From the NCBI GenBank assembly GCA_951406725.2, contig OX597823.1, positions 66,588,001 to 66,652,000 on the forward strand: a stretch of DNA of 64,000 nucleotides, read 5' to 3'. Under the pieces are notes generated by a model. That model was not told the origin of the DNA. It ran no database searches and saw nothing but the letters and a program-made list of their open reading frames with translations. Position 1 is the first letter of the stretch. The number at the start of each line of letters is the position of its first letter. Made by a program: the position numbers and the translations under genes. This DNA is from Octopus vulgaris. Taxonomy: Eukaryota. Of the stretch, positions 1 through 36,431 are shown in pieces.

Positions 1-324
1 TGGTCAATGGAATGAGAACAATTTATTCTACGGTTGAATAAACGACTGAGTTTGAAATTTCTAGATTGACGTTCAACATAACCACTTGAAGAAACTCGGA
101 GAATTCAATGCAAACGTTCTAGTTTGATTTATTGAGATTACTGAGGGCCTTTTGGCGGCCTTAATTAATACAGTATGATCGGCCAAGCATGCAGAGAAGA
201 AAAGTTATAACCATGACGACAATGTAACGAATTAAATCTCGACGAACAATAAAATCAGATAAAATGAAGCAGAACCAAAGGTAAATTAGTAAATGTATAA
301 GGATAAGCTATGAAATGATGACTA

Positions 325-9035: not shown

Positions 9036-9707
9036 CTTTTCTACTCTAGGCACAAGGCCCGAAGTTTTGGGGAGGAGGCCAATCGATTAGATCGATCCAC
9101 TATGCAGCTGGTACTTAATTTAACGACTCCGAAAGGATGAAAGGCAAAGTCGACCTCGAATCTGAACTCAGAACGTAAAGACAGACGAAATACCTTTTTC
9201 TTTACTACCCACAAGGGGCTAAAGACAGAGGGGACAAACAAGGACAGAGAAACGGATTAAGTCGATTACATTGACCCCAGTGCGTAACTGGTACATAATT
9301 TATCGACCCCTAAAAGATTAAAAGCAAAGTCGACCTCGCCGGAATTTGAACTCAGAACATAACGGCAGACGGAATACCTATTTATTTACTACAAAAAATT
9401 GTTAAACACAGAGAGGAGAAACAAGGACAGACAAACGGATTAAGTCGATTTCATCGAGCCCAGTGCGTAACTGGTACTTAATTTATCGACCCCTAAAAGA
9501 TTACAAGCAAAGTCGACCTCGCCGGAATTTGAACTCAGAACATAACGGCAGACGGAATACCTATTTATTTACTACAAAAAATTGCTAAACACAGAGAGGA
9601 GAAACAAGGACAGACAAACGGATTAAGTCGATTTCATCGAGCCCAGTGCGTAACTGGTACTTATTTAATCGACCCCGAAAGGATGAAAGGCAAAGTCGAC
9701 CTCGGCG
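9036..9707 (-). mobile_element. Tandem array of about four partial SINE family A units
   Basis: Repeated AAGGACAGACAAACGGATTAAGTCGAT..CCCAGTGCGTAACTGGTAC..AAAGTCGACCTCG units; the two central units are near-identical. Confidence 0.85.
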
Positions 9708-22138: not shown

Positions 22139-23460
22139 AGGGTTTGAGTTGGCGAGCTGGCGGAATCGTTAGCACGCCGAGGAAAATGCTTAGCGGCAAT
22201 TTGTACTCTTTACGTTCTGTTTTCAAACTCCACCGAGATCGACTTTGCCTTTCATCTTTATCGGGGTCGATGAATTTAGTACCAGTGAACCGATGGGGTC
22301 GATGTAATCGACTAGCCCCCTTTGCCAAAAGTTCAGGCCTTGTGCCCATAGTAGAAAGTATTATTATGATAAGGTTTAAAATTTTGGCATAAGGCCAGCA
22401 ATTCTAAAGGATGCGACCATAGAAAATCGACCTTATTACATGAATGATACTTTATTTTATAGATACCGAAAGAATGAAAGACAAAGTTTTGAACTCAGAA
22501 CGTATAAAGATACATCAAATGATATAAGGTATTTTGCTGACGCTGAAGCTATTCCGCAAGCTCACCGCCTTTAATAACTTCTAATTTTGAGGGGTAGGAG
22601 TTAGGTGATAATATCGATTCCAGTATATGAGAGGTATCAACCCAGGAGAGACGAAAAGCAATGTTGATCTTGACGCGTTTTGAACTCAGCATATACAGAT
22701 GAATAAGAAAATAAATTTTCCAGTACGCTGGCGTTTCTGCCAGTTCGCCATCCTTAAAATAGTTATCTCTAACTAAGGCATATCACCAGAACTTTGCATG
22801 AAGTGTATGACCGACAGTGACGGCTCCAGTACAAGTGAAACACTTGTACTTTATTTTATTGACCCGAAAATATTGAAATTTGGTACTTATTTTATCAACC
22901 CCGAAAGGATGAAAGGCAAAGTGGACCTCGGCGAAATTTGAACTCAGAATGTGAAGACGGACGAAATACCTATTTCTTTACTACCCACAAGGGGCTAAAC
23001 ACAGAGGGGCCGAACAAGGACAGACAAACGGATTAAGTCGATTATATCGACCCCAGTACGTAACTGGTACTTAATTTATCAACCCCGAAAGGATGAAAGG
23101 CAAAGTCGACCTCGGCAGAATTTGAACTCAGAACGTAGCGGCAGACGAAATACCACTAAGCAATTTTACCCGGCCTGGAAACGATTCTGCCCGTTTGCTG
23201 TCTTGCTTTGATCCGAAAATATTAAAAGCAGAATTTACGCCAGCGAGATTTGAAACTGGAACGTAGACCTTAATATTATTTATCCGACGTTCTAACGATT
23301 CTAGCCATCCTCACCCCACACAAATAATAATTGTTTCCATCATAAGCACAAGACTTGAAATCTGGCGGACAGAGTCAGTCAATTAAATTGCCTACGGTAC
23401 ATGTTGGCGCTATAATTTGTAGACACCTGAAAGATGATAGGAAAAGTCACATTCGCCGTC
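21165..23460. mobile_element. Cluster of about ten SINE family A copies (mostly minus strand) interspersed with (AAT)n
   Basis: Recurrent CCCCGAAAGGATGAAAGGCAAAGTCGACCTCGGC..TTTGAACTCAGAAC; one plus-strand copy at about 22140-22365. Confidence 0.85.
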
Positions 23461-25822: not shown

Positions 25823-25873
<51 letters not shown>

Positions 25874-25919
25874 AAACAAGTAAAAAATAGAAAATGCTAA
25901 AATAATTTTATAGTGAACA

Positions 25920-25963
25920 TTTCAGTACCGGTTTCGGTCATTTTGAGACCTTTTCAACTGTAA
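25920..25963 (-). ncRNA. Minimal type I hammerhead ribozyme, U3-A8 variant (inverted-arm copy)
   Basis: Exact reverse complement of 32497-32540. Confidence 0.75.
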
Positions 25964-26685
25964 CGATTAAATAATTAAATTTAGGAAAATTAGAAGAAAA
26001 GTTTTTTTAAAAGAATATTTCTATAGTAGTGTTCAGATTTAAGTGGCATTCTGCCTTTCTCTGACTCCCTTGTTTGCACTTGTGTGTTCGAGGTAGTTGT
26101 GAGTTCTTGGTAGGGTAGTAGAGGGAAGGCTGGTGAGGAAAGGGGGTGGGATAATCTGGGAGTGCCCTGATGGTCGTATTTTGAATGGTCAGTGGCGGCT
26201 GGCAGTCTCAGTTCAATTCAGGAGAATATTTATATTGACAGGCTTGTTTATAGAATTAGCGTAGGTGTTATACTAAAAAACATTAGTGACAAACTTAAGG
26301 GGTAGGGGGTGGAGAAGAAGAAGAAGAAGAAGAAGAAGAAGAAGAAGAAGAAGAAGAAGAAGAAGAAGGAGAAGGAGAAGGAGAAGATGATGGTGATGGT
26401 GGTGATGATTATGACGACGATGATGATGATAACGATGATGATGAAGAAGAAGAAGAAGAAGGAGGAGAAGGAGAAGATGGTGGTGATGATGGTGGCGATG
26501 ATGATGACGCCGATGATGATGATAACGATGATGATGAAGAAGAAGAAGAAGAAAAAAACAGAGAAGGGAGAATATGAATGGGTGTAAATATAGCTATGAA
26601 GGGGCTGATTAGTAATGGATTCTATGGAGTGTAGTATTTGTGTGTGTATATATATTTTTTTCTTTTATTCTAAAGTTGAGGTATA

Positions 26686-28523
26686 TTAATTGTTTGTCGT
26701 AGACCCGTTAAGAAGTGGCTTGTATTTTGTAATAAAGAGATTTTCTTTACTTATTCTTTGTCTCGAGGTTGTATCGTCCCTAAATTGGTAGAGGGGGAAA
26801 ATTCTGAAGTTTGGTGTTTTTTGTTGGCGCAAGTATCTATGTGTTGGCTAAAAGCTATTTTTCTGTTTTGGGGAATTTTTATCTGGGATCTGTGCAGGGC
26901 CATTCGTTTACGCAAACCATTTTTTGTTTGGCCTATGTACTGCTCTTGACACCCGGAGCAGGTTAGTGAGTATATTAGGTTCTCCGAAGCACATGTGAAG
27001 TTGCTTTTCACTGTAAACCGTTGTCCCTGTTTGAAGGAGAACTCAGAACCCTCGATTAGATAGTCGCATATCCCGCAATTGGGTCTTCCACATTTTTTTA
27101 CTGTCGGCTTCTGTGTTGAAGAGTGAATTCGGGCTTGTGTAAGGAGACTTTTCATGGATCTAGGCTGTCTTTTGCTTTTTATGATCGTGTGTGTTTGGAG
27201 GATTGTGTTCATTCTGTGGTCTTTTTTTAGGAGGGGTATGTTGTGGAGGATGGTGTCGAAGGCTTCGTTATTGAGAGGGTTGTGTGTGGAGATGTATGGT
27301 AAGGCTTTTGGTTGTAAGTTTTTCTTTGATTTGGGATGTCTCAGTTCCTTGATGTTAAGTTGAAGGGCACGTTGAATGCACTTGTCAATAAGTGAAGGTG
27401 GATAGTTCCTGGTGATTAGGGTATCTTTTAGTTCTTGTAGTCGTGTGTCTCTGGTGTTTGCGTTAGAGACTATAGTGCATATCCTTTTTGCTAGATTGAA
27501 GGGGATATTCATCCTGGTGTGTCTGGGGTGGCATGAATTGAATGGAAGATATTGCTTAGAGTCTGTAGGCTTATAGTATATGTCTGTTTCTATTATATTA
27601 TTAGCTTTCTTAATGAGGATATCGAGGAAGGGGAGTTGTTGTTGGCTATATTCCATCGTGAATTGGATGTTTACGTCCAGTCCGTTTAAAATTTTCTGGA
27701 ATTCTATGAGTTTTTCTATATTTTTATGCCAAAGGATGAAACAGTCATCTAGATATCTCTTCCAGTTGTTTTCTATGTAGATGGAGAAAGGGCTGCCATA
27801 TCTTTCTAGAACCTTACGATACAGACTGATCTCTATAAATTCTATGACTAGGTTGGCAAAGGAGGGGGCCATTCGTGTACCCATCGCAGTCCCCGATTTT
27901 TGTCGGTAGAAGTTGTCATTGAAGGCGAAGAAGTTATTTTCCAGGATGAATTTAACCCCTTCTATCACAAATTCTTTTTTGATGCGGTGTGGTAGTTCGT
28001 TGGCGTGATTCTCTAGCCAGAATTGGATTGCCTCTAGTCCTAGGTTGTGGGGGATATTGGAGTAGAGGTTGACTACATCGAAGGATACCAGTATGGTGTT
28101 TTTGTTTATAGTATTCGGTAGGTGATTGAGCATATCTAAGTCGTCCCTTATATAGCTTTTGACATGTTTGAGGAGTGGTTTTAACAGGGTGTCTAAAAAG
28201 TTACTGAGGCGGTGGGTTTCGCATGCGGGACCTGCTATTATGGGTCTCAATTTGAGGTCATTAGGATTAGGGACTTTAATTATTTTGTCTGTAGCTATCT
28301 TGCATGCGTTGCTTATTTTTTCACTTTTGTGGATCTTAGGTATACCGTAGAATTGGCTAGTTTTACTTGTGAAATTGGTCATATAATCATATTCTTTGTC
28401 GGTGAGCCCTGCTTTGTATGGGTTTAATATGGATTTTAGTTCCCTCATTATTTTTTGTTGACTGTAGTTTTGTGCCTTTTCATAGTATGTTGTGTCTTCC
28501 AGCATAGAAAGTACCAAAGTTAT
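26686..28523 (-). pseudogene. 5'-truncated inverted duplicate of the PLE RT/GIY-YIG ORF
   Basis: Protein identical to ORF 29623-31776 from ITLVLSML onward until a 1-nt deletion in an A7 run (about 26817-26822) shifts the C-terminus. The MICSIVV start in the ORF track is junction-derived. Confidence 0.92.
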
Positions 28524-28531
28524 CATACCAA

Positions 28532-29485
28532 ATGAAACACCACATAATACCACAATGGAACAAATCACTCAGAGATAGAAAGTTCGCCTTTTGGAAGATG
28601 ATCCAAAACAACAACAAAGCGGATATATACGAAAAATGGCTCAACCGGACCCCGTTAATCCTCCCACGTAAATTCCAGTTCAAAGCTATTACAGAAGAAC
28701 CTGAAACACAAAGACACCTCAGGGAGAGAATGGCACTGGAAAAAATGAAAATGGAAATAGAACTTCTGAAATTGAGGGCCCAAACGAATGAGGATAAAAT
28801 AAAATCCACCGATGAAGATATCAACGAAGAAATTCGCAAAATGACCCAAGGCCCAGATCAAGAGAAGTTCTCCAAACTATGGAAAGAGGACTGTGAAAAA
28901 GAAGAACTAAAATCTCTCCAACGCTGGGAGAAAAGCGCCACTTGGTTCTCAGACTATGAAGCCGTCTTTCAAACAGAGCACGCCTCCAACAACCCTTTCC
29001 AGAAAATAAGAAAACCAAAACAACACCCAAACACCGATACACACCTGTCTAAAAATCGGAACCTTCACTACTATCAAAAAAAGAATACAGGACCTAACCC
29101 CAACTCTGTAAGCAGCCAGCGATACAATATCAGGAATACCCCCACTTCAAGCAGAGAAAGGATAAATCAACACCCACAGCATAGACACTGCAACCTCATC
29201 CCCACCCAAAGGAGTTACCAACGAAATCTTCGTCCCATTAACCGGTTAAACAACCATGCACAACAAACCCACACCACTTGCAATGATTACCAACGAAGGC
29301 CTCCTAGAACACCACACCCGAATATGGGATATCGGGATGCTCTCCTCAATACTGCTCCAAGAACACACACCACAAATCACAACAGGAGACCCCTAATCAA
29401 CAAAGAACAACTATATACTAGCTACCGTCCCAACCACCGCATTCATTTTTTAGACCCAATACGCAAACACAGAGACACAAGATAG
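28532..29485 (+). CDS. PLE upstream ORF1 (charged helical/coiled-coil N-half, basic N/R/P/H-rich C-half); probably 5'-truncated by the inversion
   Basis: 317-aa ORF with the same A/C-rich strand bias as the RT ORF. Heptad-like ERMALEKMKMEIELLKLRAQTNEDKIKSTDEDINEEIRKM. The frame is open back to the inversion junction at 28523. Confidence 0.75.
   Translation: MKHHIIPQWNKSLRDRKFAFWKMIQNNNKADIYEKWLNRTPLILPRKFQFKAITEEPETQRHLRERMALEKMKMEIELLKLRAQTNEDKIKSTDEDINEEIRKMTQGPDQEKFSKLWKEDCEKEELKSLQRWEKSATWFSDYEAVFQTEHASNNPFQKIRKPKQHPNTDTHLSKNRNLHYYQKKNTGPNPNSVSSQRYNIRNTPTSSRERINQHPQHRHCNLIPTQRSYQRNLRPINRLNNHAQQTHTTCNDYQRRPPRTPHPNMGYRDALLNTAPRTHTTNHNRRPLINKEQLYTSYRPNHRIHFLDPIRKHRDTR
29446..29452 (+). promoter_or_regulatory. 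Candidate -1 ribosomal frameshift heptamer T TTT TTA (alternatively a 3' splice acceptor TTTTTTAG)
   Basis: Phased X XXY YYZ in the ORF1 frame and inside the 29422-29485 overlap with the RT frame, which is -1 relative to ORF1. Confidence 0.6.
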
Positions 29486-29622
29486 CACCAAACAAGCAGG
29501 AGGAACCAAAAGTAATAAAAATTATTAATCTAACTCACAAGGAACTAACAGCAAACCAAATAAACATACTTTCCAAAGGACTCAAGTTTACACCCACCCC
29601 ACAACACCCCAACTACAATGAA

Positions 29623-31776
29623 ATGAAAGAAGACATCGCAGAATTCTGCAGAAAATTAAGACTTACTGAGGAGCTATACGATAAATACAACGAGGACGAA
29701 TCGTTAGCCAGAAATAGGAGTAACTACACCCCCTCGAAAGGTAAGAATAAAACACTTGATGATTTCTGTGACCACATATCAAATTACCCATATCAACATA
29801 TGCACAAACAAAAACACAAACCAAACTTCAGCAAAAAAGAATGGGCTGAGTTGAACAAATTAAAACTAGATAAAACAATAACAATCAAAGAGGCCGATAA
29901 AGGGAGTGCTGTTGTCTTAATGGATACGACATTTTACATAACTTTGGTACTTTCTATGCTGGAAGACACAACATACTATGAAAAGGCACAAAACTACAGT
30001 CAACAAAAAATAATGAGGGAACTAAAATCTATATTAAACCCATACAAAGCAGGGCTCACCGACAAAGAATATGATTATATGACCAATTTCACAAGTAAAA
30101 CTAGCCAATTCTACGGTATACCTAAGATCCACAAAAGTGAAAAAATAAGCAACGCATGCAAGATAGCTACAGACAAAATAATTAAAGTCCCTAATCCTAA
30201 TGACCTCAAATTGAGACCCATAATAGCAGGTCCCGCATGCGAAACCCACCGCCTCAGTAACTTTTTAGACACCCTGTTAAAACCACTCCTCAAACATGTC
30301 AAAAGCTATATAAGGGACGACTTAGATATGCTCAATCACCTACCGAATACTATAAACAAAAACACCATACTGGTATCCTTCGATGTAGTCAACCTCTACT
30401 CCAATATCCCCCACAACCTAGGACTAGAGGCAATCCAATTCTGGCTAGAGAATCACGCCAACGAACTACCACACCGCATCAAAAAAGAATTTGTGATAGA
30501 AGGGGTTAAATTCATCCTGGAAAATAACTTCTTCGCCTTCAATGACAACTTCTACCGACAAAAATCGGGGACTGCGATGGGTACACGAATGGCCCCCTCC
30601 TTTGCCAACCTAGTCATAGAATTTATAGAGATCAGTCTGTATCGTAAGGTTCTAGAAAGATATGGCAGCCCTTTCTCCATCTACATAGAAAACAACTGGA
30701 AGAGATATCTAGATGACTGTTTCATCCTTTGGCATAAAAATATAGAAAAACTCATAGAATTCCAGAAAATTTTAAACGGACTGGACGTAAACATCCAATT
30801 CACGATGGAATATAGCCAACAACAACTCCCCTTCCTCGATATCCTCATTAAGAAAGCTAATAATATAATAGAAACAGACATATACTATAAGCCTACAGAC
30901 TCTAAGCAATATCTTCCATTCAATTCATGCCACCCCAGACACACCAGGATGAATATCCCCTTCAATCTAGCAAAAAGGATATGCACTATAGTCTCTAACG
31001 CAAACACCAGAGACACACGACTACAAGAACTAAAAGATACCCTAATCACCAGGAACTATCCACCTTCACTTATTGACAAGTGCATTCAACGTGCCCTTCA
31101 ACTTAACATCAAGGAACTGAGACATCCCAAATCAAAGAAAAACTTACAACCAAAAGCCTTACCATACATCTCCACACACAACCCTCTCAATAACGAAGCC
31201 TTCGACACCATCCTCCACAACATACCCCTCCTAAAAAAAGACCACAGAATGAACACAATCCTCCAAACACACACGATCATAAAAAGCAAAAGACAGCCTA
31301 GATCCATGAAAAGTCTCCTTACACAAGCCCGAATTCACTCTTCAACACAGAAGCCGACAGTAAAAAAATGTGGAAGACCCAATTGCGGGATATGCGACTA
31401 TCTAATCGAGGGTTCTGAGTTCTCCTTCAAACAGGGACAACGGTTTACAGTGAAAAGCAACTTCACATGTGCTTCGGAGAACCTAATATACTCACTAACC
31501 TGCTCCGGGTGTCAAGAGCAGTACATAGGCCAAACAAAAAATGGTTTGCGTAAACGAATGGCCCTGCACAGATCCCAGATAAAAATTCCCCAAAACAGAA
31601 AAATAGCTTTTAGCCAACACATAGATACTTGCGCCAACAAAAAAACACCAAACTTCAGAATTTTCCCCCTCTACCAATTTAGGGACGATACAACCTCGAG
31701 ACAAAGAATAAGTAAAGAAAATCTCTTTATTACAAAATACAAGCCACTTCTTAACGGGTCTACGACAAACAATTAA
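29623..31776 (+). CDS. Penelope-like reverse transcriptase with C-terminal GIY-YIG endonuclease (frame actually open from 29422)
   Basis: IKEADKGSAVV, LRPII, LVSFDVVNLYSNIPH, QKSGTAMGTRMAPSFANL, WKRYLDDCF, LPFLDI, YYKPTD, YLPFNSCHP, linker CGRPNCGIC, NLIYSLTCSGCQEQYIGQT..RKRMALHRS. Upstream in-frame IINLTHKEL..LSKGLKFTPTP. Confidence 0.96.
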   Translation: MKEDIAEFCRKLRLTEELYDKYNEDESLARNRSNYTPSKGKNKTLDDFCDHISNYPYQHMHKQKHKPNFSKKEWAELNKLKLDKTITIKEADKGSAVVLMDTTFYITLVLSMLEDTTYYEKAQNYSQQKIMRELKSILNPYKAGLTDKEYDYMTNFTSKTSQFYGIPKIHKSEKISNACKIATDKIIKVPNPNDLKLRPIIAGPACETHRLSNFLDTLLKPLLKHVKSYIRDDLDMLNHLPNTINKNTILVSFDVVNLYSNIPHNLGLEAIQFWLENHANELPHRIKKEFVIEGVKFILENNFFAFNDNFYRQKSGTAMGTRMAPSFANLVIEFIEISLYRKVLERYGSPFSIYIENNWKRYLDDCFILWHKNIEKLIEFQKILNGLDVNIQFTMEYSQQQLPFLDILIKKANNIIETDIYYKPTDSKQYLPFNSCHPRHTRMNIPFNLAKRICTIVSNANTRDTRLQELKDTLITRNYPPSLIDKCIQRALQLNIKELRHPKSKKNLQPKALPYISTHNPLNNEAFDTILHNIPLLKKDHRMNTILQTHTIIKSKRQPRSMKSLLTQARIHSSTQKPTVKKCGRPNCGICDYLIEGSEFSFKQGQRFTVKSNFTCASENLIYSLTCSGCQEQYIGQTKNGLRKRMALHRSQIKIPQNRKIAFSQHIDTCANKKTPNFRIFPLYQFRDDTTSRQRISKENLFITKYKPLLNGSTTNN

Positions 31777-31889
31777 TATACCTCAACTTTAGAATAAAAG
31801 AAAAAAATATATATACACACACAAATACTACACTCCATAGAATCCATTACTAATCAGCCCCTTCATAGCTATATTTACACCCATTCATA

Positions 31890-32150
31890 TTCTCCCTTCT
31901 CTGTTTTTTTCTTCTTCTTCTTCTTCATCATCATCGTTATCATCATCATCGGCGTCATCATCATCGCCACCATCATCACCACCATCTTCTCCTTCTCCTC
32001 CTTCTTCTTCTTCTTCTTCATCATCATCGTTATCATCATCATCGTCGTCATAATCATCACCACCATCACCATCATCTTCTCCTTCTCCTTTCTTCTTCTT
32101 CTTCTTCTTCTTCTTCTTCTTCTTCTTCTTCTTCTTCTTCTTCTTCTCCA
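31890..32150. repeat. Compound (CTT)n/(CAT)n repeat within the PLE 3' UTR (mirrored at about 26310-26570)
   Basis: Present in both arms, so it is part of the element. Confidence 0.9.
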
Positions 32151-32496
32151 CCCCCTACCCCTTAAGTTTGTCACTAATGTTTTTTAGTATAACACCTACG
32201 CTAATTCTATAAACAAGCCTGTCAATATAAATATTCTCCTGAATTGAACTGAGACTGCCAGCCGCCACTGACCATTCAAAATACGACCATCAGGGCACTC
32301 CCAGATTATCCCACCCCCTTTCCTCACCAGCCTTCCCTCTACTACCCTACCAAGAACTCACAACTACCTCGAACACACAAGTGCAAACAAGGGAGTCAGA
32401 GAAAGGCAGAATGCCACTTAAATCTGAACACTACTATAGAAATATTCTTTTAAAAAAACTTTTCTTCTAATTTTTCTAAATTTAATTACTTAATCG

Positions 32497-32540
32497 TTAC
32501 AGTTGAAAAGGTCTCAAAATGACCGAAACCGGTACTGAAA
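32497..32540 (+). ncRNA. Minimal type I hammerhead ribozyme, U3-A8 variant
   Basis: ttaCAG-TTGAAAA-GGTC tcaaaat GACC-GAAAC-CG-GTA-CTGaaa. Stem I CAG/CTG, stem II GGTC/GACC, palindromic stem III ACCGGT; predicted cut after A32534. Confidence 0.75.
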
Positions 32541-32894
32541 TGTTCACTATAAAATTATTTTAGCATTTTCTATTTTTTACTTGTTTTTTCATATATATCA
32601 ACTCGTGTGTTCCTTTTCACCCTTATACATATATATATATATACACATACAATGTTGGTAGGGTTAAAACAAAAGCTGTGACCTATTGAGGCTTATCTGC
32701 TTATTCTAGTATGATAATCCAGTACATAGTGGTTATATTTCTCTGAGTGGGTCATCATAATCATTATCATCATCAACCTCATCATCATCATCGTCGTCGT
32801 CGTCGTCAAACTCATCATCTTCTGTTGCTAGGGTTCTAGAAAATGATGTGTTGTAAATGGACTACAAGAAACAGTAAGCGATTGTAAATTTCTA

Positions 32895-33119: not shown

Positions 33120-33820
33120 ATTTTATTCTTTTATTTCTTTCAGTCATTTGACTGCGGCCATGCTGAAACACTGCCTTAATCGAAGAAATCGATTCCAGGA
33201 CCTATTCTTTGTAAGTGTAGTACTTTTTCTATCGGTCTTTTGCCGAACCGGTAAGATACGAGGACGTAAACACACCAACATCGATTGTCAAGCGATGGTG
33301 CGGGGACAAACGCAGACACAGACTGACACACACACACACATATATATATATATACAGATATATACACATATAAACAGTTTTTGTGATATTTCTGCTGCTT
33401 TTTAATAAAGTATATTACTCTACGGCTAAGGCGGCGAGCTGGCAGAATCGTTAGCACGCCGGGCGAAATGCGTAGCCGTATTTCGTCTGCCGTTACCTGT
33501 TCTGGGTTCAAATTCCGCCGAGGTCGACTTTGCCTTTCATCCTTTCGGGGTCGATAAAATAAGTACCAGTTACGTTCTGGGGTGGATGTAATCGACTTAA
33601 TCCCTTTGTCTGTCCTTGTTTGTCCCCTCTATGTTTAGCCCCTTGTGGGTAGTAAAGAAATATATATTACTCTACGGCTGTATTCGAGTACTATTTTCTC
33701 CACCTTGTTTCGCATTTATGAACTTACTCCGGTATAAATATATATATATATATATATATACAAGGCTTTGGTGGGCCCAAGTTTATAGTAGAAAACACTT
33801 AGGTGCCACGCAGTGGAATA
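33120..33820 (-). mobile_element. SINE family B split by nested insertions
   Basis: 3' half at 33120-33355, 5' remnant at about 33760-33820. Confidence 0.8.
33428..33662 (+). mobile_element. Full-length SINE family A with 17-bp TSD
   Basis: TSD TATATTACTCTACGGCT at 33411-33427 and 33663-33679. Head AAGGCGGCGAGCTGGCAGAATCG, B box GGTTCAAATTCC, core GCCTTTCATCCTTTCGGGGTCGATAAA (Meta/MESC-like by recollection). Confidence 0.93.
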
Positions 33821-36188: not shown

Positions 36189-36352
36189 TTTTCTTATTGC
36201 CCACAAGGGGCTAAATACAGAGGGGACAAACAAGGACAGACAAAGGGATTAAGTCGATTACATCGGCCCCCAGTGCGTAACTGGTACTTAATTTATCGAC
36301 CCCCGAAAGGATGAAAGGCAAAGTCGACGTCGGAGGAATTTGAACTCAGAAC
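36189..36352 (-). mobile_element. SINE family A, 5'-truncated
   Basis: Reverse complement of the 3' part of 33428-33662. Confidence 0.9.
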
Positions 36353-36431
36353 ATATAAATATACATACAAATACATTCATTCACACACACACACATACAC
36401 ATACATACAAACACACACATACATGATATAT

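Follow-up and report, generated by a model that had tools for sequence, protein, structure and literature searches.

How the reverse transcriptase (RT) and endonuclease (EN) of a Penelope-like element (PLE) are translated when their reading frame lacks a start codon is the question raised by the stretch of 64,000 nucleotides of Octopus vulgaris DNA analysed here (the window). The sequence-only reading of this DNA had placed the opening of the RT frame directly after a TAG at 29419-29421 and its first ATG downstream of the conserved motif IINLTHKEL..LSKGLKFTPTP (29521-29601). It had also described an upstream ORF1 that overlaps the RT frame in the -1 relation and carries a T TTT TTA correctly phased as Phe-Leu. 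All these positions were the same on re-check (Table 1). The frame and the stop assigned to ORF1 stood as well; its extent did not, as the window copy starts inside ORF1, at residue 92 of 411, and the ATG at 28532 encodes Met95 and is no start codon. We propose that the element is a two-ORF PLE of the Neptune type whose RT-EN would be made by programmed -1 ribosomal frameshifting at a U UUU UUA close to the 3' end of ORF1, a reading to which we assign a probability of roughly 0.82-0.85.

Table 1 Features of the element (nucleotide positions in the window; last row, residues of the ORF1 protein)
Feature	Position	Strand	Remarks
Penelope-like element, likely Neptune-type, active, 5'-truncated, family A	28524..32598	+	98-99% identity to full-length copies, e.g. 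locus L031
Inverted 3' partial copy (= 29938-32598), adjoining the + copy	25862..28523	-	arms 100% complementary
ORF1, residues 92-411	28524..29485	+	helical core, then basic low-complexity tail rich in R/N/H/P/T
Slippery heptamer U UUU UUA, predicted -1 shift site	29446..29452	+	Phe400-Leu401 of ORF1
ORF1 stop TAG	29483..29485	+	10 sense codons past UUA; ribosomes may queue here (candidate pause site)
RT-EN frame, -1, 784 codons	29422..31776	+	first in-frame ATG 29623
RT core	30208..30771	+	Pfam RVT_1, E 3.6e-8
C-x4-C-x2-C linker motif	31369..31395	+	Neptune/Nematis type
GIY-YIG endonuclease	31483..31746	+	2 Cys between the motifs and 2 His beyond them; Pfam match slightly below the curated cut-off (E 3.7e-4)
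3' pseudo-LTR and short tail	32143..32633	+	same sequence precedes ORF1 in full-length copies
Hammerhead-ribozyme-like stretch in the pseudo-LTR	32485..32557	+	weak HH9 match, 18.8 bits, E 0.83, gathering score 52; in the pseudo-LTR of both copies
Predicted ORF1 helices	11-37, 48-75, 86-132, 152-198, 202-243		

The two copies in the window form an inverted pair typical of PLEs, with outer ends in (TA)n. An RT followed by a GIY-YIG domain with CCHH motif, and pseudo-LTRs (pLTRs) with tandem or inverted, 5'-truncated copies, are the marks of EN-bearing (EN+) PLEs and were all found, as was the Cys-rich C-x2-5-C-x2-C linker between RT and EN that marks Neptune and Nematis. The linker and the (TA)n targets make the affiliation as Neptune-type likely. 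EN+ PLEs are usually described with a single ORF; here there are two overlapping ones. Neither trait of Athena/Terminon elements, the lack of an endonuclease and telomeric repeats at the ends, was observed, since EN is present and copies lie on many contigs, in (TA)n. In all five fuller copies examined, the pLTR is followed by an ORF1 of 411 aa. The 3' UTR contains long TTC/TCA microsatellites that are copied with the element (31905-32147 and 26290-26560 in the window). A short dispersed, SINE-like repeat of about 180 nt occurs elsewhere in the window, at 9108-9704 (in tandem), 22881-23154, 33499-33668 and 36283-36372.

The -1 offset is a property of the whole family. A search of the genome with the 451-nt junction returned 730 candidates, with a full-length match in all 40 that were scored and the exact junction in all 30 that were fetched. 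With a pattern allowing a variable T run, 132 matches were obtained; among the 100 listed, 98 had six T and two had seven. A homopolymer indel in a single copy, a caveat of the sequence-only reading, is thereby ruled out as the source of the offset, T6 and the -1 relation being common to the copies. Family A is a young one and was dispersed with the offset already in place. The heptamer by itself is not rare, as three other phased words of the X XXY YYZ form occur in the ORF1 of the window, none of them within the overlap. ORF1 is, however, only 15-19% T and the junction run is the sole T6 run in its frame in five of the eight families of this genome described below, so that T6 at the junction exceeds chance. 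The site thus has the canonical form of a -1 frameshift signal, a 0-frame X XXY YYZ heptamer lying inside a -1 overlap and conserved at the nucleotide level. A second phased T TTT TTG lies near the start of ORF1 in family A (L031:4472-4478, about codons 28-30), upstream of the truncation of the window copy; its run length differs among copies, and the other families lack it at that place.

Distant relatives within the genome were collected with divergent ORF1 proteins as queries, hence blind to the heptamer. The 60 loci retrieved, together with family A, fall into eight families, between which ORF1 is 21-52% and the RT N-terminus 40-72% identical. Intact copies of all eight have RT in the -1 frame and the six T in the same phase of ORF1; the heptamer is T TTT TTA in seven families and T TTT TTT (Phe-Phe) in family H. 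An alignment of further copies and relatives, proposed in the sequence-only reading as a check, thus found offset and heptamer kept across copies and families alike. Many single copies are broken by indels elsewhere in the element. ORF1 and RT share one frame in four copies of family H (L107-L110, 1199-1214 aa) and two of family C (L073-L074), which arose through single-base gains in A runs. Three of the four fused H copies have the same additional A in an A run, but on different haplotypes. A fused sub-lineage spreading within family H was therefore rejected; the shared gain reflects recurrent slips or assembly errors.

Outside this genome, searches with ORF1 found homologs in 582 cluster representatives (50% identity) at E values up to 0.001, 150 of which were listed. 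Among the matches listed, 66 of the 78 homologs of at least 330 aa have Phe-Leu within their last 45 residues, compared with four and five of the same 78 in the two preceding windows; the end region around this dipeptide is otherwise without conservation. RT-based scans yielded 79 metagenome and 11 genome loci, 21 of them with a match to the ORF1 profile. Twenty of these 21 (L130 was left out, having no sequence upstream of its junction) and five close RT relatives without an ORF1 match were examined, and the 25 loci reduce to 18 families. TTTTTTA was found in 13 of them and TTTTTTG in three, one has an imperfect site (L134) and one has none (L148). Altogether, a U6N phased Phe-Leu or Phe-Phe in ORF1, with RT-EN at -1, is present in 8/8 families here and 16/18 elsewhere (24/26); the two exceptions count against frameshifting. 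The seventh base of the 24 sites is A in 20, G in three and T in one family, and the base before the T run is not a T in 23. In the L128 family, the run has five T in two copies. In L134 (529-560) the imperfect T TTT CTA lies exactly 10 codons before the stop; four codons further upstream there is a phased A AAT TTA, possibly a case of site turnover. In L148 (700-760), ORF1 ends Tyr-Phe-Arg without a clear heptamer.

One relative with a named source comes from a bivalve. Several PLE RT-EN proteins (P0191, P0234, P0236, P0240, P0244 and P0255) and loci (L206-L216) are filed under bacterial genomes or symbionts and are likely host contamination. No match was obtained in ORF1-based scans of metagenome and viral contigs, nor in the RT-based scan of viral contigs. 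None of the best 120 RT homologs (612-803 aa; search range to 1320) was fused to ORF1, and there were no RT homologs in the range of 1321-3770 aa, which lies above the length expected of a fusion. Two other PLEs, L166 (112-1581) and L190 (3-530), have a long in-frame N-terminal extension before RT, of 490 aa in L166; its pattern His...Asp...Gln/Gly-x-x-Asp-Cys-Gly is reminiscent of Ulp1/SUMO-type proteases.

In the proposed mechanism, most ribosomes would end at the ORF1 TAG and release a free helical protein with a basic tail. On a minority, tRNA-Phe and tRNA-Leu would re-pair one base back, giving a predicted ORF1-RT-EN fusion of 401 + 774 = 1175 aa, and the fraction that shifts would fix a gag-pol-like ratio of ORF1 to fusion. 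Between the heptamer and the conserved RT motif the RT frame contains no stop, and in 20 of the 24 families this leader also lacks an in-frame ATG. Since TTT and TTA are not favoured codons in these elements (39% of Phe and 16% of Leu codons, respectively), the constraint at the site acts on nucleotides. It also acts on codon phase, which re-pairing of tRNAs needs and which splicing and polymerase slippage do not. In alphavirus reporters, U UUU UUA caused 5-40% frameshifting, in one group without a compact fold (PMC2569925). Taken together, the conserved sequence points to a real and deeply conserved feature, likely a gag-pol-like -1 frameshift in an EN-bearing, Neptune-type PLE lineage.

Three other routes to RT were weighed. 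Were TTTTTTAG a 3' splice site, as the sequence-only reading had cautioned, a minor spliced mRNA would drop part or all of ORF1 and join an upstream exon to the RT frame. In 18 of the 24 families the T run is followed by an AG, always in RT phase 2, so that TTTTTTAG can be read as an acceptor there; in family H, a CAG of that phase occurs 8 nt further downstream, and PLEs are known to carry and retain introns. Six families (H, L128, L136, L206, L139 and L141), however, lack an AG at the site, none has the CAG form there, and an acceptor gives no cause for a T run kept in one phase of ORF1. A credible donor is also missing from family A: no GT[AG] inside ORF1 joins in the ORF1 frame, two donors give only exons of 5-11 codons that begin at out-of-frame ATGs within ORF1, and with a non-coding exon the first ATG would still be that at 29623. 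The caveat thus fits poorly and splicing is very improbable. In each of eight sequencing runs, six only presumed to be RNA and two of unknown kind, a contig bridges 29453 unspliced, and no joint was listed there; as contigs lose rare forms and may derive from DNA, they were counted neither way.

A separate start of RT is nearly as improbable, though marginally less so. It would take place, by reinitiation or at a near-cognate codon, 12 codons past the T run, where a codon of the RT frame overlaps the ORF1 stop position. An ATG stands at this codon in families B, D and L137; another four have GTG or CTG there and three have ATA. In several close RT homologs the initial Met lies 9-11 residues ahead of the motif. 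Yet four families whose stop lies exactly there have CTA or GTA, and in 10 of the 24 the codon is unrelated; moreover, the mostly ATG-free leader speaks against such a start, which would leave the invariant phased heptamer unexplained. Least probable of all is that RNA polymerase slips on T6 and adds one U, yielding a minority of in-frame transcripts. The invariant homopolymer run and the two T7 copies among the 100 listed would agree with it. Slippage works in any codon phase, however, while a single phase is kept in 24/24 families; the restriction of the seventh base to A, G or T likewise argues against it, and six T are short for slippage by Pol II.

By analogy with L1 ORF1p and Gag, the protein encoded by ORF1 would probably be an oligomeric, RNA-binding assembly protein. 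Residues 1-270 were modelled with good confidence as entirely helical (pLDDT 86, pTM 0.65), and the N-terminal part gave weak coiled-coil matches, which together support the coiled-coil character noted from the sequence. The last 156 residues are of low complexity with a net charge of +21. No Pfam family was common to more than one of 60 ORF1 members searched, the Atlas search gave no usable match, and the fold search returned generic helical bundles only (best Z 8.8, rmsd 4.4 over 152 aligned residues). An origin of the core as the detached N-terminal domain of single-ORF PLEs was unsupported (hhalign E 0.16, probability 0.4%); the register with that in-frame domain is plausible, without significance.

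A stimulator of the predicted slip was also sought. The sequence-only reading had seen no obvious stimulatory hairpin, and the 70 nt downstream of the site in family A indeed fold at only -0.9 kcal/mol (z +0.4 to +0.7). Canonical sites have a stem-loop or pseudoknot 5-9 nt downstream; local fold prediction, which covers neither pseudoknots nor long-range pairings, gave no such structure in family A and no conserved 3' fold across the 24 families. Two candidates were therefore considered, both within the frameshift explanation.

The stop codon may itself take the place of the fold. Among 95 ORF1 proteins of at least 290 aa, 79 have Phe-Leu or Phe-Phe in the last 50 residues; the distance from heptamer to stop is 10 codons in 26 of them, 11 in six, nine in one, fewer than nine in none and 12-43 in 46. 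Under a constant stop hazard, some 1-3 cases would be expected at 10 codons, against the 26 observed. At the nucleotide level, codon +11 is TAA or TAG in seven of the 24 families (including the window) and TGG in seven more, that is, one of the three in 14/24, compared with 5.6% at other positions. The A sites of mammalian disomes are 30 nt apart, with a second state one codon longer (PMC7397865), and in E. coli reporters -1 shifting rose about 2-fold when a slow stop lay behind a 9-codon spacer (PMC6815119). As the 10-codon spacing matches that of queued ribosomes, a queue was considered as the stimulator: the ORF1 stop would be kept at a distance of one ribosome length (10 codons) downstream of the U UUU UUA, and a ribosome terminating there would hold the next one on the slippery site. 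We put this forward tentatively, as less than an even bet. Against it, 17 of the 24 families have other spacings, 46 of the 79 proteins have 12 or more codons, and the stop of L135 comes after a single codon. On a quick tree the 10-codon label forms clusters (14 changes versus 25.5 when shuffled), so the 10-codon cases are not independent. Families B, C and D, which are closely related to family A, multiplied despite a TGG at +11; three of the 24 families are predicted to form a stable 3' fold (z below -2); and the SARS-CoV-2 stop acts by another route, letting a pseudoknot refold. A periodicity of 10, 20 and 30 codons proved weak, the 20-codon stops in C and D coming from the RT motif itself.

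The other candidate, for which we see a chance only slightly short of even as far as the stimulator is concerned, is that a real frameshift is promoted by a short unstructured 3' sequence or by slow decoding of UUA, and that the 10-codon spacing was inherited or set by constraints on the overlapping peptides. G is enriched at two positions 7-8 nt past the heptamer (16 and 18 of the 24 families), a conserved GG that possibly constitutes such a signal, and in Semliki Forest virus the first 14 nt play a role in the absence of a fold (PMC2569925). The clustering on the tree agrees with inheritance of the spacing, and at +18 there is an accumulation of stops created by the RT motif itself (7/24 families). 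The GG is missing from family A, however, and an aliphatic RT residue as the cause of the spacing predicts NTT or NTC codons (55% of NTN codons), of which none was seen in 14. Nor do the ten-residue tails, which range from acidic to basic, share a common sequence; the stop follows the heptamer and not the RT motif, which is 18-28 codons away in the 10-codon families.

Canonical EN+ PLEs are described as single-ORF, and Neptune and Nematis as defined by their Cys linker, by Craig et al. (2021; PMC8557442). According to the legend of Fig. 1 in the same source, a frameshift with a pseudoknot can set ORF1 apart; no clade is named there. For killifish Neptune, a short ORF1 ahead of RT has been described, the two ORFs being non-overlapping, with no mention of a frameshift (PMC12602865). 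The sequence-only statement that EN+ PLEs are usually single-ORF therefore holds as the usual description, with exceptions in print in these two sources. The octopus element has the RT, the C-x4-C-x2-C linker, the C-terminal GIY-YIG with CCHH, the pLTRs, the tandem or inverted copies and the (TA)n targets of Neptune EN+ PLEs; it differs in its ORF1, which in this lineage is 350-550 aa long, overlaps RT at -1 and ends on a conserved slippery site. The frameshift-separated ORF1 of the legend mentioned above is reportedly that of Athena. With the EN-deficient Athena/Terminon PLEs the element shares the coiled-coil ORFs upstream of RT, which have been described for Terminons (PMC6431247); in contrast to them it has an endonuclease, inserts genome-wide and has no conserved 3' fold. 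U UUU UUA in the Phe-Leu phase, with a structural-type ORF ahead of the shifted frame, is also found in HIV-1 gag-pol and alphavirus 6K/TF (PMC2569925). There, a hairpin or pseudoknot usually follows on the 3' side, whereas local fold prediction gave none in family A, and the likeness implies no homology with Gag. The collision-stimulated E. coli reporters of Smith et al. (2019; PMC6815119) likewise have a heptamer one ribosome length before a stop without RNA structure. They are engineered and bacterial, with an optimum of nine codons and an effect of about 2-fold, whereas the present candidate would be natural and eukaryotic, at 10 codons. Targeted searches of the literature on PLEs turned up no account of a slippery site; an earlier one is possible, for example in figures or in Repbase or Dfam notes.

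If frameshifting is true, the protein to express for studying these telomerase-related retroelements would change to the ORF1-RT-EN fusion of about 1175 aa, and the Met-started RT fragment of gene callers would be an incomplete enzyme. A place would also be gained by an ORF1 family that is widespread but lacks annotation, with 582 clusters at 50% identity and no assignment in Pfam. The dozens of natural U6N-slip variants without a conserved fold, with stop distances of 1 to 43 codons, make stop-codon queues as programmers of frameshifting in eukaryotes directly testable. The most interesting point is whether the stop codon, via a ribosome queue, stands in for the usual RNA structure. If so, a mechanism that we found described only in engineered bacterial reporters would have a natural counterpart in a eukaryote, and RT output would depend on ribosome load across a whole lineage of animal retroelements.
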